Shown: one piece after another, positions 1-28,033 of the stretch
Layout: each line of letters opens with the position of its first letter
How positions within the stretch are numbered: position 1 is the first letter of the stretch
Source: an uncultured Verrucomicrobiae bacterium
Lineage (GTDB): Bacteria > Verrucomicrobiota > Verrucomicrobiia > Chthoniobacterales > JAFAMB01
Length of the DNA: 64,000 bases
NCBI GenBank assembly: GCA_963762565.1
Contig: CAVXLD010000005.1
Span: forward strand, 32,001 to 96,000
Reading direction: 5' to 3'
Translations under genes and position numbers: made by a program
Notes under the pieces: generated by a model
The model's input: only the letters and a program-made list of their open reading frames with translations
Told to the model about the DNA's origin: nothing
Database searches by the model: none

Positions 1-1041
1 ACGCAGACAACGCCTACCTGTCTGTGGAATGATTCGGCATCCATTGAAGAACTAGCTTATTCCATTGAGCATGGCGCGGTCGGAGCCACTTGTAACCCGG
101 TGATCGTGGTTGGGGTGCTCAAGAAAGAAATGCCTCTATGGAAGGACCGGATCCGGGCCTTGATCAACGAAATGCCAACTGCTACTGAGGACCAGATCGG
201 TTGGCAGATCGTTCGGGAGATCTCCGTCAAAGCCGCCGCGCTTTTGGAGCCGACGTTCGAACAGCAGAAAGGCAAGAACGGACGGTTGTCTGTTCAAACA
301 GACCCCCGGCTTTATCGGGACACTGAGGCAATCGTTAAACAGACTATCGAGTTCTCCCAGCTGGCGCCTAATATCATTGTAAAGATTCCGGTTACCCGCG
401 CCGGCATACCGGCAATCGAAGAAGCCACCTACCAAGGCGTGAGCATCAACGCCACGGTCAGTTTCACTCTGCCACAAGCGATCGCCGTTGCCGAAGCCGT
501 TGAACGCGGCCTTAAACGCCGGGAACGCGAAGGGAAAGATATCTCCACCATGGGCCCGGTCTGCACCATCATGGTAGGCCGGCTGGACGATTGGTTAAAA
601 GCCGTAGCTGAGAAAGAAAGCATCACCACCGATCCCGGGTACTTCGAATGGGCCGGTGTCGCTGTGTTCAAAAAAGCGTATCAGATCTATCGCGAACGCG
701 GCTATCGTCTCCGTCTGCTTTCAGCCGCCTTTCGCAATCATATGCATTGGAGCGAATTCATCGGGGGCGATGTCGTCATCTCGCCGCCTTACGCCTGGCA
801 AGTCCGGTACAACGCCAGCGATATCGCCGTCGTTCCGCGGATCGATAATCCCGTCGATCCGAAGATCGTGGCTGACCTCTCCAAGAAGTTCGTCGATTTT
901 CGCCGAGCCTATACCGAAGACGGGCTTACAGCGGAAACCTTCGATTCGTTTGGCCCGACTCGACGCACCCTCCGCCAATTCATCGCCGGTTGTGGTGATC
1001 TCGGAGCCATTGTCCGCGATTTCATGCTGCCGGAGTGGTGA
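1..1041 (+). CDS. tal: Transaldolase family protein (5' end truncated by window edge)
   Basis: Frame open from base 1 (TQTTPTCLWNDS...GATCNP); motifs LSVQTDP, NIIVKIP (Schiff-base Lys), INATVSF. Confidence 0.9.
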   Translation, partial: TQTTPTCLWNDSASIEELAYSIEHGAVGATCNPVIVVGVLKKEMPLWKDRIRALINEMPTATEDQIGWQIVREISVKAAALLEPTFEQQKGKNGRLSVQTDPRLYRDTEAIVKQTIEFSQLAPNIIVKIPVTRAGIPAIEEATYQGVSINATVSFTLPQAIAVAEAVERGLKRREREGKDISTMGPVCTIMVGRLDDWLKAVAEKESITTDPGYFEWAGVAVFKKAYQIYRERGYRLRLLSAAFRNHMHWSEFIGGDVVISPPYAWQVRYNASDIAVVPRIDNPVDPKIVADLSKKFVDFRRAYTEDGLTAETFDSFGPTRRTLRQFIAGCGDLGAIVRDFMLPEW

Positions 1042-1175
1042 GCGGGGGAAGTGAGAAGTGATTGGTGGGTTCGTGGAGGGCGCCTCGCTTGCGAGGCCCA
1101 CCTTGGCGAGTGTTGAAACCCAACGTGAGCTACGTGGGCGATCCGGCGGCCGCCCATAGGCGTCAAGATAAGGAG

Positions 1176-1367
1176 TTAGTGCTTGAGTTTGAGGGGCTTA
1201 GTCGGTTTCTTTCGACGCAGGATGAGGGTGTTTTTGTCTTCGACGAACCACTCTAATTCTTCTCCTTTGTCCAGTTCAATAGCGTCGGCCAGAGCGGCAG
1301 GCAAATTGACATAGAAGCTGCGATTGGTGGGACGATCGACTTTTTGGAGTTTGACCGGATAGCCCAT
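1176..1367 (-). CDS. AbrB/MazE/SpoVT-family DNA-binding protein
   Basis: 63 aa, pattern KLQKV...SFYVNLPAALADAIELDKGEELEWFVEDKNTLILR typical of the swapped-hairpin fold; lies inside the IS ends. Confidence 0.8.
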   Translation of the reverse strand: MGYPVKLQKVDRPTNRSFYVNLPAALADAIELDKGEELEWFVEDKNTLILRRKKPTKPLKLKH

Positions 1368-1454
1368 GGTTAGGAAAGAAGTCTAACGCTCTAAAGAGCA
1401 AGAAAGAGAGAGAAAAAAGCTGTGCAGGTATATAGTGTTTATACTATATATCAT

Positions 1455-2714
1455 ATGCTGCAACGCTTTTCCTATTTGCCTCTGCAAACCTTGGCTAGAA
1501 GCTCTGGTTTTGTCTTACGACGCCCTAAAAAACTCTCTCTGGAAGCATTCCTTCAATCCATCCTCTTGAGTCTGTGCTACCCAGCCTATTCTTTCCAAAG
1601 CTGGGCGGCCCAATTAAGTGCCTTGCAGGCGGGACTGTTCTCTAAACAAGCTCTGCATCAGCGCTGCGACAGAAGGCTGCTAGATTTTCTGCAACTTTGT
1701 TTGGCCAGCTTGTTAGCCAATTTTATGCACCGCTCTTGCCCCAGTCGGCTGTTGGAACCTTTCGGCCGAGTTTTGCTCCAGGACAGCACCGCTTTAGCCC
1801 TCCATCCCAGACTGGCGAGTTGTTTTCCGGCTTGTGGTAATCAACACCAAGCAAAGCTTGCCAGCGTCAAAATCCAAGCCGTCTTTGAACTGCGTTCTCA
1901 ACGCTGGCTTCATTTCCAACTCGGTGCCCTGACCGACAACGATCAGAAGGCCTCGAGCTTGATTTTAAGTTTGCTCCAACCCGGAGACTTGGTCATTCGC
2001 GACCTGGGCTACGCCGTCTTTAAAGTTTGGCGCCAGATCATCCAGGCCGGGGCCTATTTCTTGAGTCGGTGCCGCAGCGATTTTGTTTTCTTTGATCCCA
2101 AAACTCAAAAGCCGGTCGAGCTTTTGGCTTTAGTGCAAAACCATGGTCAACTCAGTGCCCAGCTGCTGCTCGGCGCCCAAGAGCGACTCCCGGTGCGTTT
2201 GGTGGCTTTGCGCTTGCCCCCAGCCTTAGCCGCTCAGCGTCGGCGGCGCGCTCGGGCCAACGCCAAAAAAGATCGCTCGCTAAAGCTCACCAAACGCTAT
2301 CTCAAACTTTTAGGTTGGACCCTCCTATTGACCAACGTCACCGCTGAACAACTCAGTGCCCAGCAACTCTGGGAAGTCTATAGCACTCGGTGGCAAATCG
2401 AAGTGCTTTTCAAAAGTTGGAAATCTCATTTTCAGCTCGGTCAGCTTCCCGCTCGCAATCCACTCTGGGTCCAGATTCAACTCTTAGCAAAACTACTAGC
2501 CATTGCCTTGCTGCAGACCGCTTTTGCCCTTCAGCCTTGGGGCGTTGAACTAAACGCTCTCAGTCCACTCAAAATCGCTGCCTATTTGAGTCGTTTGCTT
2601 CCCTTAATTGCCGCTTCCCCTCACCAAGACTGGCTCCAACATTTCTTTTACTTTTGCCGTTATGACTCCCGTTCCGATCGAACCAACCTCTTTCAAAGAC
2701 TCGCAGCTTTATGA
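1455..2714 (+). CDS. IS4-family DDE transposase
   Basis: LLQDST, IRDLGY and YSTRWQIEVLFKSWKS (YREK-type) motifs; ATG at 1455 (alternative GTG at 1422). Confidence 0.92.
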   Translation: MLQRFSYLPLQTLARSSGFVLRRPKKLSLEAFLQSILLSLCYPAYSFQSWAAQLSALQAGLFSKQALHQRCDRRLLDFLQLCLASLLANFMHRSCPSRLLEPFGRVLLQDSTALALHPRLASCFPACGNQHQAKLASVKIQAVFELRSQRWLHFQLGALTDNDQKASSLILSLLQPGDLVIRDLGYAVFKVWRQIIQAGAYFLSRCRSDFVFFDPKTQKPVELLALVQNHGQLSAQLLLGAQERLPVRLVALRLPPALAAQRRRRARANAKKDRSLKLTKRYLKLLGWTLLLTNVTAEQLSAQQLWEVYSTRWQIEVLFKSWKSHFQLGQLPARNPLWVQIQLLAKLLAIALLQTAFALQPWGVELNALSPLKIAAYLSRLLPLIAASPHQDWLQHFFYFCRYDSRSDRTNLFQRLAAL

Positions 2715-2827
2715 GTCGACTCCTTATCTTGACGCGCATGGGCGGCCGCCGGACGAGATTCCTCTTTTTTGCTTCCGTTTGCGGTTAGTCTCCGAAACTC
2801 TTGCTCCCGATCCCGGGAGAAGTGTTC

Positions 2828-3301
2828 ATGCATAGAAACAAACTTTACTTCATCGGTTTGTTCTTTTTAATTTTTCTGGGTGTCGGCGTTTATCTTATCA
2901 GCAAGGAAGTCATTTTCGCGTTTACTCAAGCGCCGGCCACCGCGCGCGTAGTCGATAAGACCGTTAGTCATTCAGGCAATCCGGGCAATCGCTCAGGTCG
3001 AGATGAACATTTTCTCGTGTGCGAGATTCGGCCGGATCCAGGGAACAAAACTTTTCGGGGCGATGTTCAAATTAATTACGTCAGCTGGAGTCTGACCAAG
3101 GTGGGCCAAGAGATCGAAGTTCGATATGAGCGAACTAACCCAACTATCATGCGGCTTCCTCGAAGCGTTGGAAATTGGCCCTTCGGTCTTTTTAGCTTAG
3201 CGGTCGGGGCCTTCGGCCTCTTCTTCGTTGGCAAAGCATGGTTACGTCCGCGACCCGCTGGCGTTGTTCGGGAAACGCCGGGAACGCCGACATCGCCGTG
3301 A
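2828..3301 (+). CDS. DUF3592-like membrane protein
   Basis: N- and C-terminal TM segments flanking ATARVV...VGQEIEVRYERTNP beta domain. Confidence 0.65.
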   Translation: MHRNKLYFIGLFFLIFLGVGVYLISKEVIFAFTQAPATARVVDKTVSHSGNPGNRSGRDEHFLVCEIRPDPGNKTFRGDVQINYVSWSLTKVGQEIEVRYERTNPTIMRLPRSVGNWPFGLFSLAVGAFGLFFVGKAWLRPRPAGVVRETPGTPTSP

Positions 3302-3461
3302 TCGCCAGACTTCGCCCAGTCGTCTGAAACTCCGACTTCGTCTGTCGCTTAGGCTCCTGGAGACTTCGTCGGGGGCCTGGAGGCTACCTCTGGCAGGGCC
3401 GGGAACGGAGAAAGGTAAGATTACGTTAGACAATATGACCTGTCCCTATTTTCATCTGCTT

Positions 3462-3670
3462 TTACGCCTGGCAAGTGCGTTACAATGCGAGCGATATACC
3501 CGTCGTTCCGCGGATCGATAATCCCGTCGATCCGAAGATCGTGGCTGAGCTCTCCAAGAAGTTTGTCGATTTTCGCCGGGCCTACACCGAAGACGGCCTG
3601 TCCTTAGAAACCTTCGATTCGTTTGGCCCGGCCCGGCGTACCCCGGCAATTCGTCGCCGGCTTCAGTGAT
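3462..3670 (+). pseudogene. Diverged remnant of transaldolase 3' end
   Basis: Aligns to about 789-1000 (YAWQVRYNASDI.VVPRIDNPVDPKIVA.LSKKFVDFRRAYTEDGL); frameshifted near its end. Confidence 0.9.
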
Positions 3671-3679
3671 TTGTGTTGG

Positions 3680-4387
3680 TTATCTTACGCTGCGCCTGCT
3701 AGGAGATTGGCGGACTGGTGAATTTTGCACTGGCTGGATGCGATAACAATTGATCGCAACAATCCGCTCCTGGCCTGGTAAAAGAGGGGTCACCTCATGA
3801 GGCACTATGCCACCTAACAGCACAGCGGTGTCGCCTCGTTCCAAAGTCACTGCCACTCCCGATAATTTTCTGTTGGCGTGAAGCTTTGATAACGGTTTTC
3901 CAATATATTCTGGATAAACATGCAGCCCGCCGGCGAGGCGACTCGTGTCGTTTGATGTGAGACATGTAATAAGGGCAACGTCACAACCTTCTTCGTCGCG
4001 GTGCAGGCCTAGGAAGTCACCCGCTTGGTCATAGTAGGTGTAGATGCCCGCGCCGGTTGGTTGGACCGAAGTATTGCATAAGCGGCCAAGCGCCCCCGTG
4101 ACTCGGGATGATGAGTGGATCCTCCAGTGAATGTCTCCGCCATCCGTTGATCTGAAGGCTCGCGCCGGAGCGCCTCCCCGTCCCTCACTACCGTCCGAAT
4201 TCATCACCAAAAAACGCTTGGCTTTCGCCCGCATCGCATTCGCCTCGGTCGCCAGAATTTTCAAAGTGTATTTCGACATCCATTCTGGCAACACTACAAA
4301 ACCGCCATCAGCAGCTAAGCGAGATCGCCTAACCTGCTCCAATGCCGGCAAATCCCAATCATCTATGCCAAATGCCAGGTCTCGCAT
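3680..4387 (-). CDS. 2OG-Fe(II) oxygenase-like protein
   Basis: YTYY...GDFLGLHRD (HxD), GGLHVY, distal His in VPHEVTP, Arg in ERIVAINCY. Confidence 0.75.
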   Translation of the reverse strand: MRDLAFGIDDWDLPALEQVRRSRLAADGGFVVLPEWMSKYTLKILATEANAMRAKAKRFLVMNSDGSEGRGGAPARAFRSTDGGDIHWRIHSSSRVTGALGRLCNTSVQPTGAGIYTYYDQAGDFLGLHRDEEGCDVALITCLTSNDTSRLAGGLHVYPEYIGKPLSKLHANRKLSGVAVTLERGDTAVLLGGIVPHEVTPLLPGQERIVAINCYRIQPVQNSPVRQSPSRRSVR

Positions 4388-4404
4388 CCTTTGAAAAGCA
4401 CCAG

Positions 4405-6243
4405 TTAAGGGGTAGTTTCCTCTTCGAACCCTGCTGCACAGCGGCTTCGGCTTGGATCTATTGCCAGACTGAGATAGGAGTCACCTTCCCGTAGCATCAG
4501 TTGAGAAGTTACCAATTGCTGAAGAAACGCATCTAGAGACACTGGTTTTCCAAATCGTCGGGCTGCGAAGAGATCGATGCTGGAGCGGCTTCGGATCTCG
4601 TCACAAAATTCGTAGATCTCTCGTTGCAGACCATTGAACGGATAGTGTAAAGGCTCACGATTGGGTCGACTGTCTAGAACCATTAGCTCAGGATCTGTGC
4701 CGTAGTTTTTTATAAGATCGCCTTGATTTCCCCTCCAGGTCTCGACCTTGTCGAGCACTGGCTGCATATACTGAATGGGCTCCCGACTGTCAGAGTACTC
4801 GTAATCAAAAAAATAGGCTAGGTTGGTCACGGTTTCGTCAGGTAGGAAATAAATGTGGTAATATAAAGAGTACGGCCGTACATCGACGAAGCCGAACTCC
4901 TCAGCTTGGTCATAATTCGGGCTAAAGCGGTCGAGGCGGATCTTGGCGACGACGCCGGGGGATGGAAGATGATAGATTGCCTCGATGACTCGCGCTGTTT
5001 CTTCGTAGTCTTGGACGGTTTCTCCCGGGAAACCGTATAACAAGTTCCAGGCGATTTCGACACCGTACTCGCGCGCGAGTTTAAGCAATTGCACATTCTG
5101 GATCGCGCTAACTCCCTTGCGCATAAGTTGCAAGACGTGGCTGTTCAAGCTCTCGATGCCGGGCTGGATGGCCGTCACCCCTGCGTCGCGCAACATCTCG
5201 ATCTGATCACGTCTAAGATTAGACTTTACTTCATAAAAAAGGGAAATCCCCGGATTGTGCTCCTTTAGCATCGGCAGCAGATCCCGGAAAAATTTATATG
5301 ACATGATATTGTCTACGGCCTGAAACTCACGTAACCCGTAACGGGCTCTCTGCCTTTCTAGTTCTCTATAGACGCGTGAAGCGCTTTTTGCTCGAAAGGT
5401 TAGCGTCGAGCCGTTCAAACCACAGAACGTACAATGCGACTTGGCAAACCACCAGCAGCCCCGGGCGGTCTCAATCAACAATGCCGGTTCTAATTGCGGT
5501 CCAAGCGAAGTGCGACGCACAGCGGTAAAATAGTCATCATAATCCGGGTCCGGTAAGCGATCCAGGTCATGAATCCGATCCGGGGGCGCTGTAAGCTTTG
5601 ACTCACCGTCCTCCCTACAAATCACGCCGGGTACTGCTTCGGCCGTATGACCGGTGCACAGCCGTGCAACTAGAGCTGGAAAGCTGTTGTCCGACTCCCC
5701 AGAACAGATGTAATCAATCCAAGGAAACTGGCGGTGGAGCTCTAACCCCATTATACCTTCGCAGTTCCCGCCCCCAAACACTATGATTTTGTCCTTGTAT
5801 CTCTTCTTAATGGACTGGGACAAGGCGAGGGAAGCTAGATTTTGCTCGAAGGTCGTCGAAAACCCAATAATCTGGTGGCCAGCGATATCGAATTCGTCAA
5901 AGCAAGCCTCGATAAATGGAGACACCTCTCCACGAAGGTTCATCACATCCTTGAACTCGCCGTCGTCTAGCTCCTGTCGCAAAAACTCGACATAGGGGGA
6001 GCGATCTTCTCCCGGAAATACGTACTCAGAAAACAACCAGTCACCAGTGAACAACCATCCGCTAAGCCGATCGTTAATCAGTTCGTACGCTGAGAGTCCA
6101 ACCCGCTCAGCAAAAAGCAAATTTCCGTATCCAATATCGCACCGGATCCCTTCTTCAGATAACCGGGCCTTAAGAATACTGATCCCGATTGCAGGCCTGG
6201 ACAGCGAAACGAACGGCATATTCAGAAGTAGAACCCTGAACAT
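4405..6243 (-). CDS. RiPP maturation B12-binding radical SAM C-methyltransferase (TIGR03975-like)
   Basis: N-terminal VLLLNMPF...PAIGISILKA, GFSTTFEQNLASLALS, FGGGNCEG; Cx7Cx2C motif ETARGCWWFAKSHCTFCGLNG; IQPGIES, WNLLYGFPGE, RLDRFSP; C-terminal RRE-like segment. Confidence 0.9.
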   Translation of the reverse strand: MFRVLLLNMPFVSLSRPAIGISILKARLSEEGIRCDIGYGNLLFAERVGLSAYELINDRLSGWLFTGDWLFSEYVFPGEDRSPYVEFLRQELDDGEFKDVMNLRGEVSPFIEACFDEFDIAGHQIIGFSTTFEQNLASLALSQSIKKRYKDKIIVFGGGNCEGIMGLELHRQFPWIDYICSGESDNSFPALVARLCTGHTAEAVPGVICREDGESKLTAPPDRIHDLDRLPDPDYDDYFTAVRRTSLGPQLEPALLIETARGCWWFAKSHCTFCGLNGSTLTFRAKSASRVYRELERQRARYGLREFQAVDNIMSYKFFRDLLPMLKEHNPGISLFYEVKSNLRRDQIEMLRDAGVTAIQPGIESLNSHVLQLMRKGVSAIQNVQLLKLAREYGVEIAWNLLYGFPGETVQDYEETARVIEAIYHLPSPGVVAKIRLDRFSPNYDQAEEFGFVDVRPYSLYYHIYFLPDETVTNLAYFFDYEYSDSREPIQYMQPVLDKVETWRGNQGDLIKNYGTDPELMVLDSRPNREPLHYPFNGLQREIYEFCDEIRSRSSIDLFAARRFGKPVSLDAFLQQLVTSQLMLREGDSYLSLAIDPSRSRCAAGFEEETTP

Positions 6244-6258
6244 GAGCACACTTACTCT

Positions 6259-6413
6259 TCACTTAGATGGCTTAGCCATCGAGATCGGTTCTAAGCTCGG
6301 CAATTCTCCGCATCGCTGGTTGGGTTTCGAGCTTTTGGCGTTTGTGGTTCTGGTGGCGAAGCGGTTCGCTCGGATCGTGTGATAGTTCTGATCAGACTAA
6401 CTGACTCGGACAC
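6259..6413 (-). CDS. Second putative precursor peptide (40 aa as written, about 51 aa if a 1-nt frameshift is repaired)
   Basis: Not in ORF track. GTG 6413 to TAG 6291 gives MSESVSLIRTITRSERTASPPEPQTPKARNPTSDAENCRA; similar to 6419-6601; the adjacent frame continues KPNQRCGELPSLEPISMAKPSK to TGA 6259. Confidence 0.55.
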
Positions 6414-6418
6414 ATAAT

Positions 6419-6601
6419 CTATCTCTCGGGCTTAGCCGGCCGGGCTTTTTTAGGCTCGGGCGGTGTTCTGATTGGTGGTTTAATTTGGCGGATCGGTGGT
6501 TTGCGCGCTGGTTTGGGCGCACTTGGCCGAGTGGACGGCTTGGCTGGGTTGGCTAGGTTGGCTGGCTTGACCGGTCTGATCGGATCAACTGACTCGAGCA
6601 T
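6419..6601 (-). CDS. Pro/Lys/Arg-rich putative RiPP precursor peptide (60 aa)
   Basis: AAGGAG RBS upstream of the ATG; first gene of the operon with the rSAM; 17 Pro and 15 Lys/Arg. Confidence 0.7.
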   Translation of the reverse strand: MLESVDPIRPVKPANLANPAKPSTRPSAPKPARKPPIRQIKPPIRTPPEPKKARPAKPER

Positions 6602-6793
6602 ATAGGATCTCCTTTATAAGCTCCGATGGTAATTGATTTCGCTGCGTGTCAGCAAGTCAGAAATAGGTTAGGATGCGAATGTTGAATGCTCGTAGCTGAA
6701 AATGGTCGACTAAATCGAATCCGCTCTGCAGGATAATCTCGTAGTCTCGTCCCGGGTTTTGCTACACAGTGTCGGAGTTAGGCTTTCTAGAAC

Positions 6794-8135
6794 ATGAGCC
6801 TGTTAAAAACCTTTTCGCCCCGGCTTTCTCCCGATTTTCAGGGGACTCCTGGCCAAGCGGAAGCTTGGCACAGTGCTGTGAATGCCTGGTTCCAGTCATC
6901 AATCGCACTTCAGAGGTCGTCCGTGAAATCGCGGAACTCAAGGTCTCGGGGAGTTGTGCAATTCTACAACCCTGCAAAATTTGACCCAGGTGGCCCAGCT
7001 GCGGAACAAGCAATTGTCTGGAACGCCTTCCCTAAAGAACTCGATAAGCAATACGGATTCGATCGTGCTTTGATTGAAGCGGATCGGCTACAGACTCTGA
7101 ATCGCTATTCCAAGGACCTGAATGCAGCAGTTCATTTCAGAACTTTGTATCGGCCACTTAATGAATATTGCGAATGGCATACCGTTCGCGATCCTAATAC
7201 TCAGAAGATAACAAAGGTTACGTTCTCCTCTGAACCTCCCGAATATTGGCGAGCACTATTCGGCGATGAAATAACGATCGACAGAAGGATGAGCATTAGG
7301 TTTCCAGGCGACCGCCAGCGGGTTCTAGCGCTCTACCGTGAATTGGTGAGTCCGGAGGTGCAAATGGACGATCTAATCTGCAAGGAGACGATACCGAATG
7401 CTGCTGGTCTTCCGCCGCTTGCCGTAAAAGGCGGTTACAATACCTATAATAAATGGAACACCTCGCATGGAACGTTCACTGTGATATCCCCGAAATTCCC
7501 TGGCACAGGAGATTGAGCTTGGAGCTGCCGCTACTGTCCTCCGAGCGACTGCTTCAGGCGGAGCTATCGTACAGCCTGAGCCGCTAACCTGCTGCAGCCT
7601 CGCTGGGAACCCAGATCGCAATAGCGATCCGACAATCAGTTCTTCCCTGAACGCTCTGGCGCGGGCTGGGGCTTCACTTTGCAGAATCCCGTCGGCCTAT
7701 ACCTGGACCACATCGATATTTTTGGATGGTGCGGACCGGAGTCGCGACGTTAGTGATTGTATAAGGATTGTTCGTGGCGCACCTGGGATGATTGAGCGCC
7801 TTATAATACAAGTACCGTCTGAACGTGGTTTCCTGGTGGGCAACATTACGATAGGTGGCGCCCCAATCGTTTATGGGGGACAGATTGCTGCCTGCATAAC
7901 CATGAAACTCATCGGTACAGCAGCTTGTCTCGGTACGATCTACAATGCCCCTGTCAGATGCGCTGGTCGCTGCTGCGTAGACCTAGCCAACCCGGTTCTC
8001 CTGAACCGGCGGGTCCCGTTCGGTTCTCCGACGCCCATCGGGATGGTCGACGCGTTTTTTGGCGAAATTTCTCGTCGAGTCGATCCGTCGAGAAAACACT
8101 ATAAGAATCGACAGTCGTTCCGACGCACCCGTTAG
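6794..8135 (+). pseudogene. Conserved-looking hypothetical protein upstream of DyP, split by frameshifts
   Basis: NEYCEW...KITKVTFSSEPPEYW...YNKWNT; continues in other frames as NSLAQEIELGAAATV...LTCCSLAGNPDRNSDP and LQNPVGLYLDHID, then the 7722-8135 ORF. Confidence 0.65.
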
Positions 8136-8211
8136 ACTCTCAACTATAACGAAACTTCATGAGACGGAAGAGAAACCACGAAAGTCACGCACCAATCAAC
8201 CGGTGCTCTCG

Positions 8212-9784
8212 ATGGACGACATCCAAGGCGAAGTTGTACCTGGCTTTTTCAAACCTCATCAGACGCTGTTGGGACTTCACATCCCAGATCGGATAACCGC
8301 CCTGCGGAGGTTTAAGAGAATAGTCAAAGATCTTCCGCAGAAATCACTACCGCAAGGCAAACACTCGACGATCGGCGCGCGCACCGCGAGTTTCGTCGAA
8401 GGACGAAATCTGGCGCATCCGAGGCTGAGCAAGCAGGGGTCCTTCCGCCATAGGATTTTCTTACCGCGGTCTGATTCGCTTGACACCAAGCGCCAGTCTG
8501 ATCACTAGCGAACCATTTCGATTGGGACTTGTGGCTCGCTCGACACTCTTGGGCGACCCGATTGATGCCTCCGAAGAGGGTGCTCCCTGGAATTGGGTCG
8601 TAGGTGCTCCGGGCGCTGAACTCGATGCTCTCGTGATCGTTGCCGGCAACCAGCGAAATTGGGTCACCAAGAGAGCCAGGGAATTAGCCGAGCGGTTAAT
8701 GAAGGGCGGCGTCACTGTCGCCTATGACGAAGACGGTGATGTTCGGACTGGCGAGGGGCGCGGGCGAGAGCACTTCGGCTTCAAAGACGGTATTTCACAA
8801 CCGGGTATCCGAGGGCGGGCGTCGGATAGTCCAAACGACTTTATTACCGAGCGTTATATCGCTTCAAGCGAAGTGCCTGAGCGTTGGTTGTACGGCTATC
8901 CTGGTCAGGATCTGGTTTGGCCTGGCGAATTTGTAATTGGATACCCAAAGACCGGCCCTGATCCGTTGGTTCCCGCCCCTCCTGACCCAATTGAACCGGA
9001 ATGGACGCGGAACGGTTCTTTTCTAGTCTTTCGTAGGCTTCGCCAGGACGTAGGCCTTTTCTGGCGCAGCATGCGTGCAATGGCCGCCGAGCTCGCAATG
9101 TTGCCAGGATTTGTTGGCATTGAAGAACAGCGATTGGCGTCGTTATTGGTTGGACGTTGGCCGAGCGGCGCGCCTGTTAACAGAACGCCCGCCGCAGACA
9201 ATTACGAATTAGGAAATGACGCATTAGCCAACAATAATTTTCAGTTTGACTCTAATGGTCTGCTTGTGAAGCTCGCTGGTAACCGCCGCGACGGATATCC
9301 ACAAGCGAAGGCCGACCCACTCGGAGCGACTTGCCCGTGGGCAGCCCATGTTAGGAAAGTCAACACCCGTGATTCCGCGTCTGACATGGGTGGTCGCGAA
9401 AGTACTTACAATCGTCGCATCCTGCGAGTCGGGGTGCCATTTGGTAAATTCCTGGACAGTCGCAACGCGACTGCGAAACAGGATCCAAAAAAACGCAACC
9501 GCGGTTTGCTTTTCCTTTCTATACAAGCCTCGATCGAGAAGCAGTTCGAGTTTCTCGTTTCGCGATGGATAAACGATCCGTCGCGACCGAAGATGCCTGG
9601 CGGACAAGACATGCTAGTCAGTCAAAAATCAGCTGCAGAAGATGGCATTCGACGATGTTTCCTGTTGGGATCTGGATTGCAGCAGGTAAAACTCTCCACC
9701 AACCAAGAGTGGATCATCCCGACCGGAGGTGGTTACTTCTTTATGCCCTCGATAAGCGCTCTTCGTGAGGTAATCGCTAAGTGA
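8212..9784 (+). pseudogene. Dyp-type heme peroxidase, frameshifted in the N-terminal part
   Basis: MDDIQGEVVPGF N-terminus; EHFGFKDGISQP (GxxDG), NGSFLVFRRLRQDV, AHVRKVNTR, RILR, GGGYFFMPS. Confidence 0.85.
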
Positions 9785-9824: not shown

Positions 9825-12800
9825 CTAGCTACCGGGCGATCCGACTGGATTGACATGCGCCAGACTTTGCAATGCTTGACTTATTTCATCGATCAGCATT
9901 TGTCGGTCACTACCGTCGTACAGTTCCGCCAAGTCCAAACCCGCCTGAAGAAACCTTTGGGTTTGCGTTATGTTTTCATTGCCGCCTACTTTTTCCATAG
10001 TCATGGCAGCCTTATAGAGCGCCAAAATTAGATCCCGTCGCCAAGTCGAATTGGATTTGTCTTGCTCAGCTAAATTTCGTCGGATCTGCAAGCTTTCCTC
10101 GTACACCTCGAGTGCTTGCCGAATCCTGCCTTGTGCTGCTAACCCATCGCCAAACTTTTCATAGCTCACCGATAGCTCTCGTTGCCAGTCTAGGTTAGAC
10201 TTGTCCTCGTCGGCCAGTCGCTTGGCGATCGTCAAACTTTTACCGTACGCATCCAATGCATCTTGGAGCTTGCCCTGTGCTACCAATATATCCCCAAACT
10301 TGTAGTAGCCGGCCGAGAGGTTCTGCTGCGCGATCGAGCCGGATTTATCTTGTTCAGCCAGTGCTAACCAGATTTTTAGGCTTTGCTGGTAAAGCTCGAG
10401 AGCGTCCTCCAGCTTGCCCTGTGTCTGCAGCACAGAAGCAATCTTTTCATCGTTGTTTGAGAGATCCCATTGCCAAGTTGAGTTGGATTTGTCTTGTTCA
10501 CTTAAGCGCTCGGCAATTGCCTGTGCTTGCCGGTAAAGATCCAATGCATCCTGGAGCTTGTCTTGAGCCATCAGGACGTCGCCGAGCCGCGTGGTAATCG
10601 CCGATAAGTCTCGCTGCCAACTTGAGTTGGACTTGTCTTGCTCAGCCAAGTATTTGATCATCGCTAGTCCCTGCCTGTCAGTCTTCAGCGCATCATTAGG
10701 TGTCCTTGCGCTGTCAACACATCCCCAATCTTAATAAAGCTCACCGCAAAGTCCCGTTGCCAGGCTGAATTGGATTTGTCCTGCTCGGCGAGTTTCTGGC
10801 GGATGTGCCAGCTTTGCTGGTAGAGATCCAGTGCGTCCTGGAGCTTGCCTTGCCACTCGAATACCTCACCAACACGGTCGTAACTTACGGGCGAGATCTT
10901 GCTGCCAAGCAGTGTTGGATTTGTCTTGCTCACTCAGTGTCGTCCAGATTTTCAAGCTTTGTTGGTAGTACTCCAGCGTCTCGCGAAGCTTACCTTGCCA
11001 CTTTAGCTGATCGCCAACGTTGCGGTAACACAGCGCGAGAACTTGTTGCGACTCGGAGTTAGTTTTATCTTGCTCGGTCACCAGTTTGGCAAGCGTTAGG
11101 CTCCGTCGATACTCCTGCAGCGCTTCCTGGAGTTTGCCGCGTAAAGCGAGAACATCGCCAAGGTTATTCAACATGACTGTTTGCTGCCTTAGACGCGAGG
11201 GAGTTACTAACTCCTTTGATACGTTGTCTAAATATTCCTGCGCTTTCTTGGCAACGTCGTCAGTCCATGTCTAGTCGGCCAATCGGTTTCAATTTATCGC
11301 GCAGGTCGTACAGCATGAAGTTGATAATGCGGTCGCCCTGATCACGTGCATTGTTGGCTTGCTTTTGCGAGGTCTGAGCCGCGATTCTGGCTTGTTCTGC
11401 GCGGCGGTACTGACGATAGCTAACCACTCCGAAGATGATCGCTACGATAAGCGCGGCGGTGATCCCGGCCATTACGCCATACCGGATCCGTTCCCGGATC
11501 CGGTGTTGTCGCTTCTGTTCAGCAACGCTCGCGCGGACATAATCGGCCTGTGTCTGGCTCAACGAGGGTTCGAAGTCTTTGAGTAGCTTCTCTCCTTCCG
11601 CCAACGGCAGTCCCGGTCCGAGTAAATCATCTTTCTGTTTTCCGCGGCTCAGCCAGAGCTTCAGGCTCGAATCGAGCCGATCGCGCATTCGGAGGAAATC
11701 GCGGTTCTCAGTCAGCCATTCTCTGATTCGTTGCCATTCCCTGAGCAGAGCTTCATGAGCAACACTGACATTGACCTCGCCGTGGGGATCCGTATCCGCG
11801 ATGAAAAGGCGTTTGGCGATGAAGAGATCAACGAAGCCTTTCGCGCCTGACTTCCCATCTTCGCCATCGCCGGCGACAAATTCACGGTAAGGAGCGGTTC
11901 TGCGGTTAGGCGCTTCTTCCTCGCCTTGGCCCAGGGTAACCAGGTGCCGCATCACCAGCGGAAAGGCGAGTTGTTCGTTTGGTTGCAACGTCGCAAAAAC
12001 TGTCTCCGCATATTTGGCCAGCGCTCCCTTCAATTCACCGAGGTCGCGATAATCCGACCAGCGTAATAAGCCGTCACCGCGTTCAACCTGCTTATCATAG
12101 AGCAGGGACAAAACATGTTGGAGTAGGGGCAAAGATTCCGGCGTGGTCGATGCCGCATCGCGTAGCCCTTCATCCAGTCGCTGGCCGCTTTTCTGATCGA
12201 GCTCGAATTGAAGGCCGGCAGCTTCGGCCGGCAGTCGGATCATATTGCCAATCTCATAGGCCGTGGGCGGCCGCAGATCCACCTTCCCGCTAGGTCGAGT
12301 CAATTCGGTTAACTCAGGGAATTCCTGGTAGGAAGAATAAAAGTCGCTGCGTAGGGTTGCTAAAATAAAAACCCGGCCGCTTTGACTTAACCCGGCAATC
12401 GCCGAGACATATTTTTCCTGAATCTCCGTCGAAAAACCGCTGGTGAAGAGTTCTTCCAACTGATCGATCACTAACGCCAGGCGAGCTTTGGGAAGTTCAG
12501 GTGCTTCCGTCGGGGCGTCGTGGTGAAATGACTCCCGATACCGTCGTGGATGCCGAGCTCCGCGATTTCTCCGCTTTCGCCCGCAAATACGAAGTCCGTT
12601 GCAGTTTCCATTCTCTGGCGGCGTTATCGAGCGCGTCCCGGACCCGAAGTGCAACGGCGTCGGGATGATCACGCAATTCGGCAGCTAATTCCTCGACCGC
12701 ATTGGTCGACTCCGGATTCTGCAAGCCGGGCAGGGCGGCAGAGTCGAGCAAAGCATTCGCCAGTGCATCGAAACAATCGCCGCCGCTTCCGCCGCCGCCG

Positions 12801-14753
12801 GGTCGGGTCACAGCTCGACGCCATAGCCCGATCCCTTCGATTGTGCCTGGCTGGATTAACTGTGGGAGAACTCCTGCTCGCACTAAAGAGCTTTTGCCTG
12901 AGCCGCTCCCGCCTACAATGAGCACAAACGGGCGCCAGACTTTCCTCTGCTGGTCTAAAGCTTCTAACACCTCGCCGATTGCCTTGGTTCTTCCAAAAAA
13001 GATCGGTGCGTGCTCAAAATCGAAGACGTTCAGCCCACGAAACGGACTCGTTTTCCATCGGCGTACTCTTCTTTCCGGTAGTTTGGTTCTGGCATCATGT
13101 TTGACCTGATCCGCTAACAAAATCTCGGAAATGGTTCCGGAATTGTTCCTCAAATTGTTCTAAAGTCTTGTATTGATTAAAGTCAGTCGTGCCTTTCCGC
13201 TTGTCTTCCCATTGCGCCAGAAAATCGCGCTTCGACTCCGGTTCTTGTACGCTGGACTTCGCGTTCTTGTCGCGGTTCCAACGAGACCTGCAGCATTGAT
13301 TGCTGCGATAAACTCGGAGAACTGGCAGACCATGATTTCTGCTGGCATGTTCGGCTGCCCAAGCGATTTCGTATTCCGTGCCCGAAGCCGGAACCCCACC
13401 GTCTGGCAGTCTTAACTCAGGGTGAACGGGCAGGCCTGTTTGATTCCCTAAAAGGCAAACCACTAAATCAAAGTTTCCAGGGTCCGGCAGTCGCGCGACT
13501 TCGCCTTCTGACTGTGTAGTCCCAAAATTGCACACAAAGCACGAATTTCTGATGTTCTTGGTCATCACCGCTTTTCGTTGCCGTCGTGTTCCAAAAGGGG
13601 ATCAACTTCCGTTATGCGTTGAAAATCGGAACTGGATTCGGACACCAGCAGATCGAACTCGCCGGCGATCGCTCGGACGATTCGGTTTGCCAGATTTCGT
13701 TCGCTCTGGACATCGCTACTCGAAGAGACAAAGACTCTGATTGTTTTCCTGACCAGTTGCCCCGTTTCGACAGCACTGATTACCGTTGGCAGCACCGTTG
13801 CTAGTTCAGCCGGGGTTTGAAACCTTCGCGCTGGATCTTTCCTGAGCAGAACCTCAAGCAATGCAACGACCGGTTGGGGTACGTCTCGGAGTTTCTCCAA
13901 CGGCAAGAGGGCTGTTCAAGTGCTGGTTCATCACCGCATTCGGAGCTCCTCGAAACGGCGGTTGGCCGGTCAGCATCTGCCAGAGCGTGATCCCGAGGGA
14001 ATAAAGGTCAGAACGGATATCGACATCAGTCCCCGTGAATTGTTCCGGGCTAGCGAACTCGGGCGTTCCGACGAAAGCGCCCAGAATCGATATTTCCTGA
14101 GATTCGGACTCGCTAAGCGTCTTGGCCAGCCCCAGATCGATAATGTTTACTGAGACAGCGCCATCTGCCGCCGAGCTCACCATGATATTGCTCGGTTTGA
14201 TGTCGCGATGAACCAGATTCTGTTTGTGAATTGCCTCCAATCCGGCAGCAACCTGTGCGACGATTCCCAATGCCAGCTTAGCGTCGAGACAGGTAGAACG
14301 CTTGATGAGACTCCCTAAGGTCTCCCCCTCGACAAACTCCATTGCATAGAAGTAGTGTTCCTGACTCGTCCCGAGTTGGAAAACTGAGGCAACATTTGGA
14401 TGGCGAACGCTGGCCGCTGCTCGCGCTTCCCGCAGAAATCGGGATCGAGCCTCCTCATCAGCGAGGTAACGCGGGCTGATAACCTTGAGAGCAGCGAACC
14501 GACGTAAATCGACATCAAAAGCCTTGTAGGTAATCCCCATCGCGCCGCGACCTAACTCGAATGGGGATCCATCGTCGTGCCGCAGGATCTCATAGTGCCC
14601 AAAGCGGGTTAGCGGGGCCAACGGCTCGGATGGTTCGGTGGCTGCATCGTCGGGTTGAAGTGCTCCTCGAAAAGCGCAAACCGGACAGAAGTCGTCGTGC
14701 GGAGCCAGGGTGGCGCCGCAAATCTGGCAGATTCGAACTTTTGCAGCACTCAT
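9825..14753 (-). pseudogene. Ser/Thr kinase-DUF4062-like-STAND NTPase-TM-TPR multidomain gene, multiply frameshifted
   Basis: Eight consecutive ORF fragments: CxxC...CxxC, LGRGAMG, HRDIKPSN, DLGLAK; IRVFVSSSSDV; SPFRGL...FFGR, GGSGSGKSS, LVIDQLEELF, LRSDFY; one TM helix; QDKSNSxWQRDL TPR-like repeats. Confidence 0.85.
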
Positions 14754-15520
14754 GCCCTAAGCCGGCCCTCTGACGCGATCAACGCCTCGCAAAGTGAACG
14801 AATCTCGTCGTCGATCTCATTGGGATCCGTGACCGTTTGGGCCACCGCCTCTCGTAATATCTCAGAGTAACGCTTGCGAAGACGATGGATGAGTGTCTTC
14901 ACGCCCGCGCCAGTGACCTTCAGTTTTTCGGCGACGACCTCGTAACTGAGCGCCTGGGCTGCGCCGCTTACATCAAGAAAAGGTCTCAGGGTTTCGAAAA
15001 TGTTCCCTTTTCCTTGGGCTGAATACTCTTCTTTCAGTCGTTCCATGGCCCGCCCTAAAAGCGTAAGCGCCCAATTGGCATCAAAAATTTTTTCGGGGGT
15101 CAGCGAGTCAGTTGGTTCTCGACTGTATCGATCCTCGCCATCACTGAAATCGACCGAGACAAACTCAATCTTTCCGCCCCGCTTAATCGCGTTCTCACGT
15201 TGATACTCGTTTGAAAGATAATTCTTTAGCGAGCCTAACAAGAAAGAGCGGAACTTGCCCTTGGTGGGCGTCGCTCGCTGGAGAGCTTTGTGATCAAAGA
15301 TAAAGAGGAAAAAGCCCTGGGTTAGATCCCTGGCATCCTCAGCGTTGTATCCGCGCCTTCTAATAAAGGCGTACAGCGGATACCAGTAAAGCTGGCAGAG
15401 TTCCTCCCGGGCATGATCGGCGCCTGGGGCCTGGCTTTGGCCCGAAAGCAGAACAGCACTCCAACAGGTGGTCATGAACTGGCCGCCTTTTCCGGCAACA
15501 GAATCGTCACTCGGTCTCAA
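14750..15520 (-). CDS. ECF sigma-70 factor (kinase-associated type)
   Basis: FMTTCWSAVL...LCQLYWYPLYAFIRRRG...DARDLTQGFF...GKFRSFLL...VKTLIHRLRKRY; stop overlaps kinase start (ATGA). The 415-aa ORF call extends into repeat DNA. Confidence 0.9.
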   Translation of the reverse strand: MRPSDDSVAGKGGQFMTTCWSAVLLSGQSQAPGADHAREELCQLYWYPLYAFIRRRGYNAEDARDLTQGFFLFIFDHKALQRATPTKGKFRSFLLGSLKNYLSNEYQRENAIKRGGKIEFVSVDFSDGEDRYSREPTDSLTPEKIFDANWALTLLGRAMERLKEEYSAQGKGNIFETLRPFLDVSGAAQALSYEVVAEKLKVTGAGVKTLIHRLRKRYSEILREAVAQTVTDPNEIDDEIRSLCEALIASEGRLRA

Positions 15521-15697
15521 AGTGTCTCTATTTCCCCGGGGTAGAAGTTTACCAGAAGTACAACCGTTGGGAAGGGGACATTTATCTAAAAGCCGGATTC
15601 GAGGACAGCTTGTCCGTCGTACCCCACGCTCTATGTTGCCGACCGCTCGAAGTCGGCCTCGTCCCGCGGCCGCGCGGCACGTGCCGGACCCAGCGCT

Positions 15698-15820
15698 GGG
15701 AGGGATCGCGTCCCCGCGATCCGTTGTTCCCGAAGCCGAGCGTGTTTTGTCAGTCGAGTGATCGGAATACGTCTGCAAGCTTGGCACGTCTTTGCGGCGC
15801 GCGAGGACGCGCGCCCTCCC
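15698..15820. repeat. Palindromic REP/MITE-like element, family A (empty form)
   Basis: gggagggatcgcgtccccgcgatcc...cgcgaggacgcgcgccctccc; copies at 47655, 56144, 60329 and 61528, partial copies at 52069 and 52777. Confidence 0.8.
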
Positions 15821-15980
15821 GGTCAGGGGCCGGCCAACGCCTGCGCCCTTATGTTGACGCGCATGCGCGGCCGCGGGAAGGCGCGCTCCACGGAGCCGTA
15901 GCAAAATTTCTGAAACTTCGGCTCCGGAAATCTTTTGTAGCTCCTCTGAGGTCGGGAACCCGCCCGCAAAAGAATCCACT

Positions 15981-16250
15981 ATGAAAGCTAAAACCATCCA
16001 ATTACCAGCTCGGCTCAGCGGCCGTACATCACTTCCGGCGGGTACTCACCCAACGACGGCGGGACATCTCAGGCTCCTCATCGAAACCGATGACCGTCGA
16101 TCTTGGTACACGTTTTTCCGTTCATTACGAGCCGTTCTTTCCGCGGTCCTCGACAGTTCCGCCTATGACCAAATCTCGTTGGGTCGAGAGGTCTCGGTCG
16201 CGTTTACTTCACAAGGGCCGGTCGTCTATCGATCCGGTCGGAAAAGCTAG
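15981..16250 (+). CDS. Hypothetical protein
   Basis: 89-aa ATG ORF divergent from the ECF; no recognisable motif. Confidence 0.35.
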   Translation: MKAKTIQLPARLSGRTSLPAGTHPTTAGHLRLLIETDDRRSWYTFFRSLRAVLSAVLDSSAYDQISLGREVSVAFTSQGPVVYRSGRKS

Positions 16251-26635: not shown

Positions 26636-27913
26636 GTGGATAACCACTTCGCTGAACGCCGGAATCGTGTCGCTACTGCGCTTGGGTTAAAAAACGAGTT
26701 GCTCTTGATCGGTGCCGGTCAGCCGATTGCGCTGCCGGAAAACACCGACCAGACCTATCCTTTTCGTGCGCACACGGAATATTTTTATCTGACCGGGAAC
26801 GATTCGCCTGGCGGCGTTCTGGCTTTCGATCCTAAAGATGGCGCGGCCGGCTGGGTATCCTTTGTCCCTGAAGTCACCGACGCTGAAAGAACTTGGGAAG
26901 GACGGCTACAGCCCGAGGGCACGCCGATCGCCGTGTTGGAACCTTGGTTGACCAATCGTCGTGGACGGCCGCTCGTACTATTAGGTGAACCCATTCGAGG
27001 GGTTGCGGCCGATCCGTCGTTGATCGGTTCAGCACGCGAAAAATTTCGGCATGCGCGCCGGGCAAAAGATGCGGTCGAGATGGATGCCTTACATCGAGCG
27101 GTGCGAGCAACCGCGGCCGGTTTTTCGGGGCTTTGCCAAGCGCTTCGTCCCGGTGTCACCGAACGCCAACTTCAAATCGAGCTTGAAGCCGGCTTTTTCC
27201 GAGCGGGTGCGAATCGAACCGGATACGAAAGCATTGTTGGTGTGGGATCCAACTCGGCGGTCCTGCATTTCCCTCCTTCAAGCCGGGCTGCGGCGGCCGG
27301 CGATTTGCTTTTGGTCGATGCCGGCGCGGAAGTGGATCGTTATGTGATCGATGTCACTCGCACCTATATTGTCGGAGGTAACTATAGCCCGTTTCAGCGT
27401 GATCTATACCAAATCGTTCTGGCAGCCGAAGAGGCTGGTATAGCTGGTTGTACGGTTGGGACCGAGTGGAAGGAATTACATCTCCGGATCGCCAGGCAAA
27501 TAACCGAAGGACTGGTTCAGGTTGGTTTGCTCCGAGGATCGGCCGACAGCCTGGTTGAGCGCGGCGCTCATCAGCTCTTCTTTCCACATGGCCTGGGGCA
27601 TCTGGTTGGCCTCGGCGTGCGCGACGCCAGCGGTCTGTTACCGGGCAGACAGAAAGATCAAAACCCGATGTTTGCGACTCTCCGGATGGATCTACCGTTA
27701 GGAGAAAACTATGTCGCCACGGTTGAGCCCGGAATCTATTTTATCCCGGTTATCCTCAACCATCCTACGAATCGCGAACGGTATCACGACTGCGTCAATT
27801 GGGAGTTAGCCGAACGCCACCTGAACCTCGGCGGTATCCGGATCGAGGATAACGTGCTGGTTACCGCGAATGGACCAGTCGTACTTACCAGCGATATTCC
27901 AAAGACGTGGTAG
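26636..27913 (+). CDS. pepP: Xaa-Pro aminopeptidase (M24B)
   Basis: AVLHF, LLVDAGAE...DVTRT, PHGLGHLVGL, TVEPGIY, GGIRIEDNV. Confidence 0.9.
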   Translation: MDNHFAERRNRVATALGLKNELLLIGAGQPIALPENTDQTYPFRAHTEYFYLTGNDSPGGVLAFDPKDGAAGWVSFVPEVTDAERTWEGRLQPEGTPIAVLEPWLTNRRGRPLVLLGEPIRGVAADPSLIGSAREKFRHARRAKDAVEMDALHRAVRATAAGFSGLCQALRPGVTERQLQIELEAGFFRAGANRTGYESIVGVGSNSAVLHFPPSSRAAAAGDLLLVDAGAEVDRYVIDVTRTYIVGGNYSPFQRDLYQIVLAAEEAGIAGCTVGTEWKELHLRIARQITEGLVQVGLLRGSADSLVERGAHQLFFPHGLGHLVGLGVRDASGLLPGRQKDQNPMFATLRMDLPLGENYVATVEPGIYFIPVILNHPTNRERYHDCVNWELAERHLNLGGIRIEDNVLVTANGPVVLTSDIPKTW

Positions 27914-28033
27914 AGTGGTGGCCAGTTGTGGGAGTGGCGCGAAGAGTAATCAGTAATCAGTGTGTCAGTAATCAGTACTGATGTCCCTCAGGCGGTTTTA
28001 CCGACTCCAGAAAATCGAAGAGAGAAGCAGACT

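Follow-up and report, generated by a model that had tools for sequence, protein, structure and literature searches.

A Candidate Operon for Radical SAM- and 2-Oxoglutarate-Dependent Modification of a Proline-Rich Peptide in an Uncultured Verrucomicrobiae Bacterium

What would a bacterium do to a 60-residue peptide rich in proline, lysine and arginine, when its gene shares an operon with a radical S-adenosylmethionine (SAM) enzyme and a 2-oxoglutarate (2OG)/Fe(II) oxygenase? This question is raised by positions 3,680 to 6,601 of a 64,000-nucleotide stretch of DNA from an uncultured Verrucomicrobiae bacterium (GenBank assembly GCA_963762565.1, contig CAVXLD010000005.1, positions 32,001 to 96,000), which was analyzed as a whole and is referred to as the window. 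An initial annotation had proposed here an undescribed system for a peptide that is synthesized ribosomally and then modified post-translationally (RiPP). From the present analysis, it appears reasonably probable that the four-gene operon modifies the peptide, named pepA, with the oxygenase hydroxylating proline and the radical SAM enzyme C-methylating isoleucine and valine.

The operon, its peptides and its enzymes

The operon is real and intact, and groups on the minus strand pepA, a second small gene (pepB), the radical SAM gene and the oxygenase gene (Table 1). In this order, the genes are separated by 5 nt (from the pepA stop codon to the pepB start), 41 nt and 17 nt, so that the gaps below 20 bp claimed by the initial annotation hold for the first and the last but not for the one of 41 nt. 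As annotated, PepA contains 17 Pro (28%) and 15 Lys/Arg (25%), has no Cys, Phe, Trp, Tyr or His, displays PxxP spacing and carries three PIR motifs (residues 7-9, 36-38 and 43-45), the latter two as KPPIR. Its P-[IV]-[RK] sites are centered on I8, V11, I37 and I44, to which a Q-I40-K site is added. The window holds 679 open reading frames (ORFs) of 30 aa or more, among which pepA alone attains 35% Pro over 40 aa, the runner-up reaching 29%. The predicted AAGGAG ribosome-binding site was found upstream of its start codon. Besides, all four Pro codons occur in pepA and in the long repeats of its relatives and, because all four are in use, these reading frames are judged to be under selection.

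The second small gene had been thought to require repair of a frameshift. This is unneeded, since a GTG at position 6413 already opens a 40-aa frame in register, while an ATG two bases upstream lies in the wrong frame. The product begins with M-S-E-S-V-S-L-I-R, and 30 of the first 45 nt are identical to the 5' end of pepA, for a protein identity of 32%. PepB retains E-S-V-x-x-I-R, has lost the flanking prolines and keeps 5 Pro in total; it is a second substrate or else a duplicate undergoing decay. In line with the leaderless character noted at first, neither pepA nor pepB has a match in NCBIfam or Pfam at E ≤ 0.01, and hence none to an NHLP/Nif11 leader, and genes for a protease or an exporter are absent up to about 10 kb from the operon. 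A promoter and terminator scan of positions 3300-7100 returned fewer sites than in shuffled sequence, and the composition profile revealed nothing out of the ordinary at the locus.

The assignment of the radical SAM enzyme to TIGR03975, a model named RiPP maturation radical SAM C-methyltransferase, is borne out by a score of 647 bits against a cutoff of 281.85, residues 6-597 covering model positions 1-606. The translation also contains the expected Cx7Cx2C motif (C-WWFAKSH-C-TF-C), called unique to PoyC, the C-beta methylase of Val and Ile in polytheonamide, in a review (PMC11285071). The Pfam Radical_SAM core is recognized with an E-value of 1e-18, and many NCBIfam models of cobalamin (B12)-type radical SAM enzymes match residues ~125-425. 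The Pfam B12-binding domain PF02310 reaches 20.2 bits, under its cutoff of 32.1, and matches to TokK and CysS in the Protein Data Bank (PDB) are weak. For the C-terminus resembling a RiPP recognition element, which the initial annotation had described, no sequence support was found, the last 157 aa having no Pfam match at E ≤ 1. The closest homologue is 83% identical. Judging from these sequence features, the enzyme is probably a PoyC-like cobalamin radical SAM peptide C-methyltransferase.

For the last gene, conserved residues and predicted fold agree on the HxD...H 2OG oxygenase that had been annotated. All of the 34 aligned family members share H129, D131, H197 and R208, which would, by analogy, serve as the iron triad and bind the 2OG carboxylate. 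The triad is of the HxD form, which is that of hydroxylases as opposed to the halogenase form. An AlphaFold model built from the family alignment (pLDDT 82.4, pTM 0.80) was retained, whereas a single-sequence model (pLDDT 34.5) was discarded. The retained model adopts a double-stranded beta-helix whose best PDB match is HalB (E 2e-12, template modeling [TM] score 0.71), followed by a BesD-family hydroxylase, PHD2 and Pseudomonas putida prolyl 4-hydroxylase (P4H), the whole range extending from E 2e-12 to 6e-9 and from TM 0.56 to 0.71, with 0.56-0.61 for PHD2 and P4H. At the sequence level, the family profile returned nothing significant among PDB sequences (best E = 0.3), the best Pfam match was PF03171 (E = 0.1, 13.4 bits for a cutoff of 23) and NCBIfam gave no match. 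The 138 homologues found in a set of 5.8 billion predicted proteins include close ones that are 69-99% identical, and "hypothetical protein" is the sole source name among the matches listed. The P4H-type family PF13640 was precomputed for 1 of the 120 homologues listed and, among 16 fused or long forms, scores under its cutoff in 2. The family is compact, with 361, 221 and 129 cluster representatives at E-values of 1e-3, 1e-10 and 1e-30 among 1.84 billion, and the nearest named ESM Atlas clusters are HalD (PF23169) and 2OG-FeII_Oxy_3. The oxygenase is a member of a family that belongs to the known 2OG/Fe(II) superfamily and lacks a Pfam or NCBIfam model or name.

Fused oxygenases were also observed. 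Among the best 150 family representatives, 11 are proteins of ~527-571 aa with an extra N-terminal domain (P0168, P0179, P0182, P0188, P0197, P0199, P0201, P0204, P0208, P0226 and P0246); this domain matches Glyco_transf_8 in one of the 11 (E 4e-7), and in the three sequences that were read it contains D-x-D and looks alike by eye. P0124 and P0144 are further fusions, one of 422 aa with Methyltransf_24 and one of 356 aa, the N-terminus of which matches no Pfam family at E ≤ 0.001 and resembles by eye a small Pro-kumamolisin-like protein of the protease-type loci described below.

Related loci and the proline-rich substrate family

With the oxygenase profile, 57 loci (L001-L057) were collected from species-representative genomes and analyzed by tblastn and ORF analysis; the oxygenase was matched in 55 of them, and not in L056 and L057. 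In 21 of the 57, a radical SAM enzyme of TIGR03975 type, 39-75% identical to that of the window, lies directly upstream of the oxygenase. In 28 others, a glycosyltransferase of ~300 aa stands beside the oxygenase in its place (tblastn with the L011 query). The three glycosyltransferases tested all matched the Pfam family HPAT, that of hydroxyproline O-arabinosyltransferases, with 63-80 bits for a cutoff of 23.9. This is illustrated by L011 (6623-7552, minus strand) and L003 (6431-7321, minus strand), most carriers (L002-L028 and others) being Acidobacteriaceae. Neither partner was found in six loci, namely L044, L045 and L054 at contig ends, L055, a distant 28% match, and the fully flanked L014 and L048. 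The radical SAM enzyme is exchanged for an HPAT-family enzyme in 28 loci, and the constant partner of the proline-rich gene is the oxygenase.

The linkage to a proline-rich gene was counted in the 49 loci with enough upstream DNA, the rule being that an ORF on the same strand contains 35% Pro or more over 40 aa and ends at most 600 bp upstream of the module. Such an ORF was present in 41 of 49 loci by this rule and in 45 of 49 when L031, L033, L038 and L050 were added, in which the Pro-rich stretch is below threshold or outside the rule. At other positions in the loci, ORFs of this kind occurred 8 times in 628,829 bp. The four loci without an upstream Pro-rich gene are L032 (truncated oxygenase), L035 and L041 (SPASM variant) and L055. 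The homologous radical SAM loci, whose upstream ORFs the initial annotation had put forward for comparison, do have Pro-rich genes at this place. Among radical SAM-type relatives, only the radical SAM enzyme and the oxygenase cluster with genes of the window; no exporter, protease or immunity gene is conserved, and signal peptides or membrane anchors are absent from substrates and enzymes. In L035 (5114-6136) and L041 (5145-6152), both from Bryobacterales, SPASM-type radical SAM genes lie upstream of the B12 radical SAM enzyme and the oxygenase, and the system may act there on a different substrate.

A FastTree tree was computed for 53 oxygenases, excluding L033 and L055, and is in effect unrooted; in it, the window oxygenase groups with that of L001, another Verrucomicrobiae genome, with a support of 93. 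This pair adjoins a large clade of Acidobacteriaceae in which the glycosyltransferase is the partner, a position that fits the likeness of pepA to the substrates of that clade. To account for the branches with strong support, the partner enzyme must have changed three to four times at the least, and the radical SAM type occurs across more phyla. In 21 loci (L002-L008, L010, L011, L015, L017-L023, L032, L038, L051 and L052), the neighbors of the glycosyltransferase-type module include a protein of ~860 aa with a Ser/Thr kinase domain and PD40/WD40 repeats, 60-80% identical between loci, whose gene in most cases directly follows that of the oxygenase on its downstream side. This neighbor could reflect a functional link or merely common ancestry within Acidobacteriaceae; it was set aside as a part of the system, having no counterpart beside the window operon.

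The substrates come as stand-alone proteins of 57-235 aa or as C-terminal tails, carried by BNR-like proteins of ~530 aa or by S8 subtilases of ~600 aa, with an acidic end after the tail in the latter; the tail-bearing proteins of both kinds have no signal peptide. Stand-alone relatives linked to a radical SAM enzyme are mostly P-I/V-E/Q/R repeats of 145-204 aa, and P-I/V-x triplet repeats of 226-235 aa are found in L014 and L016, both without this enzyme. The subtilases with a C-terminal P-I/V-x tail (L037, L039, L040, L043 and L046-L050) come from Deinococcales, Thermoanaerobaculia, Pyrinomonadaceae, Gemmatimonadaceae and a Roseovarius genome. In these loci, a protein of 123-126 aa, weakly similar to the Pro-kumamolisin activation domain, is encoded between the radical SAM enzyme and the oxygenase; in L048, which has no radical SAM gene, it lies just upstream of the oxygenase.

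Stand-alone substrate genes start with ATG in 22 of 22 cases, with a GGAG within 20 nt upstream in 21 of 22, and many of their products begin with M-S-S-P-x-H-P-[IV]-E-x-V-x-P-I-[KQR]-P. PepA begins with M-L-E-S-V-D-P-I-R-P, residues 2-9 of which match the family motif [IVL]-E-x-V-x-P-I-[KRQ]; the M-x-E-S-V-x-x-I-R start singled out by the initial annotation is thus part of a motif conserved in the substrates of related loci. ESVDPIRP is found identically, at the equal N-terminal place, in the substrate of L010, and L019 has IESVPPIKP. Alignment gives pepA an identity of 32-40% with the substrates of L010, L019, L009, L008, L022, L020, L051, L018, L015 and L023, and of 17-33% with seven others (17% for L021, against 25-40% across the rest of the stand-alone substrates). 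From its sequence, pepA belongs to the substrate family linked to the oxygenase.

Could pepA and pepB nevertheless be decayed remnants of a longer repeat gene, left beside intact enzymes in a unit that no longer functions? PepA is short and irregular, pepB has lost most of its prolines, no pepA homologue was found among predicted proteins, and the 3' side of the operon is flanked by an IS4-type insertion sequence with 35-nt inverted repeats and by a 182-nt transaldolase duplicate. However, both enzymes are full length with complete catalytic residues, pepA keeps a strong ribosome-binding site, an ATG and the family motif, and equally short substrates stand beside intact oxygenases in L008 (57 aa) and L009 (60 aa). 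Besides, the insertion sequence sits past the oxygenase stop codon and leaves the operon uninterrupted. A decayed unit is therefore considered highly improbable.

Proposed modifications of pepA

Of all residues, only proline recurs in every substrate type, and of all enzymes, only the oxygenase in every locus. Because of this, of the HxD triad and of the repeated association with glycosyltransferases that need a hydroxyl group, prolyl hydroxylation is the most likely reaction. In the proposed mechanism, pepA, and perhaps also pepB, would be the substrate; the oxygenase would most likely recognize the N-terminal [IVL]-E-x-V-x-P-I-[KRQ] motif and hydroxylate prolines. It might instead act on the aliphatic side chains of Val, Ile or Leu, or on a free amino acid, the prolines being only a scaffold. 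EreI, like PoyI, is said to hydroxylate aliphatic side chains. For PoyI, hydroxylation of Val and N-methyl-Asn is described (PMC9505594). In addition, the aliphatic residue after Pro is near-universal in the substrates, the best PDB matches (HalB, HalD and the BesD family) bind free Lys or Orn, and the nearest named Atlas clusters carry PF23169 HalD. Proline is favored instead by the HPAT-family partner that the oxygenase has in 28 of the 57 loci and by the linkage to a Pro-periodic gene in 45 of 49, the model also matches PHD2 and P4H, and a free amino acid as substrate would leave the conserved N-terminal peptide motif unexplained. Hydroxylation elsewhere than on proline is thus regarded as unlikely.

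The radical SAM enzyme, for its part, would most likely add methyl groups to unactivated carbons of the Ile or Val that follows Pro (PIR and PVK sites), the candidate positions in pepA being I8, V11, I37 and I44. In 391 P-x-x-P triplets from 17 substrates linked to a radical SAM enzyme, the residue after Pro is Ile in 72%, Val in 26% and Leu in 0%, whereas in 489 triplets from 25 glycosyltransferase-linked substrates it is Leu in 30%, Ile in 27%, Val in 26% and Thr in 12%. C-methylation of Ile and Val is proposed because beta-branched residues are exclusive in the radical SAM-linked repeats and because the enzyme carries the PoyC-type motif. It is a softer proposal than that of prolyl hydroxylation. 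Indeed, it is weakened by the Ile/Val richness of the triplet-type glycosyltransferase loci and by the fact that Pro too can be methylated by B12 radical SAM enzymes, as in bottromycin (PMC11285071) and the clavusporins (PMC10849626).

Several further observations weigh against the proposed chemistry. The contrast in the triplet counts becomes smaller when only triplet-type glycosyltransferase-linked substrates (L012, L024, L025, L027 and L028; Ile/Val 76-92%) are considered, and the loci behind these counts are phylogenetically non-independent. PepA itself is atypical, with a Pro-to-Pro spacing of 3 in 35% of cases vs 44-96% in most radical SAM-linked relatives (27% in L047), and it has only four P-[IV]-x sites. 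Regarding the oxygenase, the top structural matches (HalB, HalD and the BesD family) act on free Lys or Orn and rank above the prolyl hydroxylases, and Pfam does not place the window protein in PF13640. The argument from hydroxyproline is borrowed from relatives, since tblastn found no HPAT homologue anywhere in the 64-kb window. L035 and L041, both radical SAM loci, have extra SPASM radical SAM genes and no Pro-rich ORF, and the operon abuts the IS4 insertion and the duplicated transaldolase fragment. Finally, no pepA homologue was found among the 5.8 billion predicted proteins (one candidate, none scored), which is weak evidence, as such ORFs are rarely predicted by gene callers.

The product of hydroxylation and methylation would be a peptide prone to a polyproline-II shape. 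By textbook geometry, a polyproline-II helix with Pro at every third position would have three separate faces, one with Pro, one with Ile/Val and one with the charged residue, and the two modifications could stiffen or protect such a rod. The modified residues, the order of the steps, and the fate and function of the product are what we infer here. A secreted cationic polyproline-II antimicrobial made by a leaderless RiPP pathway, analogous to the proline-rich antimicrobial peptides of insects and mammals, would agree with the Pro and Lys/Arg content of pepA, its PxxP spacing, the lack of Cys and aromatic residues and the RiPP type of the tailoring enzymes. Yet exporter, protease and immunity genes are absent within about 10 kb and are not conserved in radical SAM-type relatives, and many substrates either reach 145-235 aa or form the tails of enzymes that lack a signal peptide. 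Nor is the cationic charge conserved. At the third triplet position of radical SAM-linked relatives, Glu (34%) and Gln (18%) dominate over Arg (12%) and Lys (7%), so that the cationic character, which the initial annotation gave to the product, turns out to be peculiar to the window, the relatives being long P-I/V-x repeats, often acidic and in some cases fused to proteases or beta-propellers. Such an antimicrobial role is accordingly judged very unlikely. Judged from the relatives, the product is likelier to be a peptide associated with the cell, or a modified segment with a structural or scaffold function, than a secreted antibiotic, and the short, basic and irregular pepA may have a role unlike that of the long acidic repeats.

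Beyond the window, the loci come from Acidobacteriota, Verrucomicrobiota, Deinococcota, Gemmatimonadota, Pseudomonadota, Vulcanimicrobiota and Binatota. It is tentatively suggested that they represent a dedicated multi-phylum system for hypermodified polyproline-II proteins and peptides, made of a prolyl hydroxylase family, motif-bearing substrates of P-[IV]-x or PP-x-x type, and a radical SAM enzyme or glycosyltransferase as interchangeable partners.

Flanking genes, known systems and significance

The features of the window are collected in Table 1. On the 3' flank of the operon, the IS4-type element and the second copy of the transaldolase 3' end suggest an insertion or rearrangement. On the other side, a divergent trio of genes is not conserved with the module in related loci. 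Further away, TPR, nSTAND1 NTPase and protein-kinase ORFs resemble pieces of a single large STAND signaling gene, an intact nSTAND1-TPR protein is also encoded, and a potassium channel-type protein of the inward-rectifier family, typical of eukaryotes, is found on the minus strand. A sedolisin and an Xaa-Pro aminopeptidase, both encoded at ~20 kb from the operon, were considered as processing enzymes and rejected. Neither gene is conserved with the module, and the sedolisin lacks a Pro-rich tail and possesses a hydrophobic N-terminus of its own.

Table 1. Coordinates of the operon and of other features of the window.
Feature	Position	Strand	Basis or remark
pepA, 60-aa Pro/Lys/Arg-rich peptide, probable substrate	6419..6601	minus	ORF and translation
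pepB, 40-aa diverged copy of pepA, GTG start	6291..6413	minus	second substrate or decaying duplicate
Class B radical SAM enzyme, 614 aa, TIGR03975	4405..6249	minus	hidden Markov model score, Cx7Cx2C
2OG/Fe(II) oxygenase, 235 aa, unnamed family	3680..4387	minus	H129-x-D131...H197, R208
AAGGAG ribosome-binding site of pepA (distance to the ATG, 7 nt)	6609..6614	minus	read from the sequence
IS4-type transposase gene	1422..2714		DDE_Tnp_1, E 6e-23
IS4-type element	1142..2753		bounded by 35-nt inverted repeats, 94% complementary
Duplicated transaldolase 3' end, 182 nt	789..970 and 3462..3643		88% identity; second copy next to the oxygenase stop
Divergent genes	6794..9784	plus	240-aa and 137-aa ORFs without family; 434-aa protein with weak DyP-peroxidase C-terminal match, E 6.5e-5
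Pieces resembling a STAND gene (region 9825..15997)	9825..10661, 11260..12672, 12497..13153, 13854..14753		TPR, nSTAND1 NTPase and protein-kinase ORFs
Inward-rectifier potassium channel-type protein, 301 aa	19063..19968	minus	IRK_C, E 8e-27; Ion_trans_2
nSTAND1-TPR protein, 1360 aa	20364..24446		intact
Xaa-Pro aminopeptidase	26636..27913		rejected as processing enzyme
Sedolisin	27962..30109		rejected as processing enzyme

The operon is of a known kind, the tailoring of a ribosomal peptide or protein by a B12 radical SAM enzyme and a 2OG oxygenase, and its radical SAM family is known. PoyB and PoyC themselves presumably score in TIGR03975. In the polytheonamide pathway, B12 radical SAM methylases (PoyB and PoyC) are likewise combined with a putative Fe(II)/2OG hydroxylase, PoyI, on a ribosomal peptide (PMC9505594), and PoyC shares the Cx7Cx2C motif with the window enzyme (PMC11285071). 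In contrast, the window has no NHLP/Nif11 leader, epimerase, N-methyltransferase, dehydratase or protease, its substrate is Pro-periodic with its own short N-terminal motif, and its oxygenase is from a distinct family, for which there is no model and in which the partner may be a glycosyltransferase instead. Since the NHLP/Nif11 leader is lacking, the system is not a proteusin. In clavusporin biosynthesis, a short ribosomal peptide is hypermethylated by a B12 radical SAM enzyme at Val, Ile, Thr and Pro, on carbons that are unactivated, and many precursors of this type have an acidic follower (PMC10849626), to which the acidic end of the protease-fused relatives can be likened. According to the same source, the corresponding mpc clusters occur in Actinobacteria only and depend on a DUF5825 partner together with an S9 peptidase and a transporter (PMC10849626). 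The window operon is not such a cluster, because genes for these three proteins are lacking; conversely, mpc clusters have no oxygenase.

Regarding the oxygenase, the BesD, HalB and HalD enzymes are the best structural matches (TM ~0.7) and the nearest named Atlas clusters. Unlike this family, which is of HxD form and genomically tied to Pro-rich proteins, they use free Lys or Orn, and their identity to the oxygenase in structural alignments is just 15-21%. The other comparison is with plants, in which hydroxyproline-rich glycoproteins are made by prolyl 4-hydroxylase and then hydroxyproline O-arabinosyltransferase acting on extensin-type repeats. In 28 of the 57 related loci, the same combination of a Pro-rich repeat, a 2OG hydroxylase and an HPAT-family glycosyltransferase is encountered, whereas the window has the radical SAM enzyme in the stead of the glycosyltransferase. 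The bacterial repeats also differ, being P-[IVL]-x or PP-x-x instead of Ser-Pro(3-5), the bacterial substrates and enzymes have no signal peptides or membrane anchors, and the oxygenase stays below PF13640. A full-text literature search, covering what lies outside subscription journals and supplements, found no description of the oxygenase family, of P-I/V-x radical SAM substrates or of bacterial HPAT-type systems. There is a fair chance that the wider system is a new class.

If this reading is true, an unannotated family of 2OG hydroxylases with 361 cluster representatives would gain a substrate and a role, and PoyC-type radical methylation would reach from the toxins of sponge symbionts to widespread proline-repeat proteins of soil bacteria. 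Proline hydroxylation followed by O-glycosylation, which is the hallmark chemistry of plant cell-wall glycoproteins, would not be limited to eukaryotes, and with its glycosyltransferase branch the system would offer a bacterial parallel to the extensin pathway of plants. The branch found in the window would yield C-methylated and hydroxylated proline-rich rods or peptides, a pattern that, to our knowledge, has been described for no protein. Being small, with one peptide and two enzymes, the system would also be tractable for the study of how B12 radical SAM enzymes choose their sites on repetitive, leader-poor substrates.

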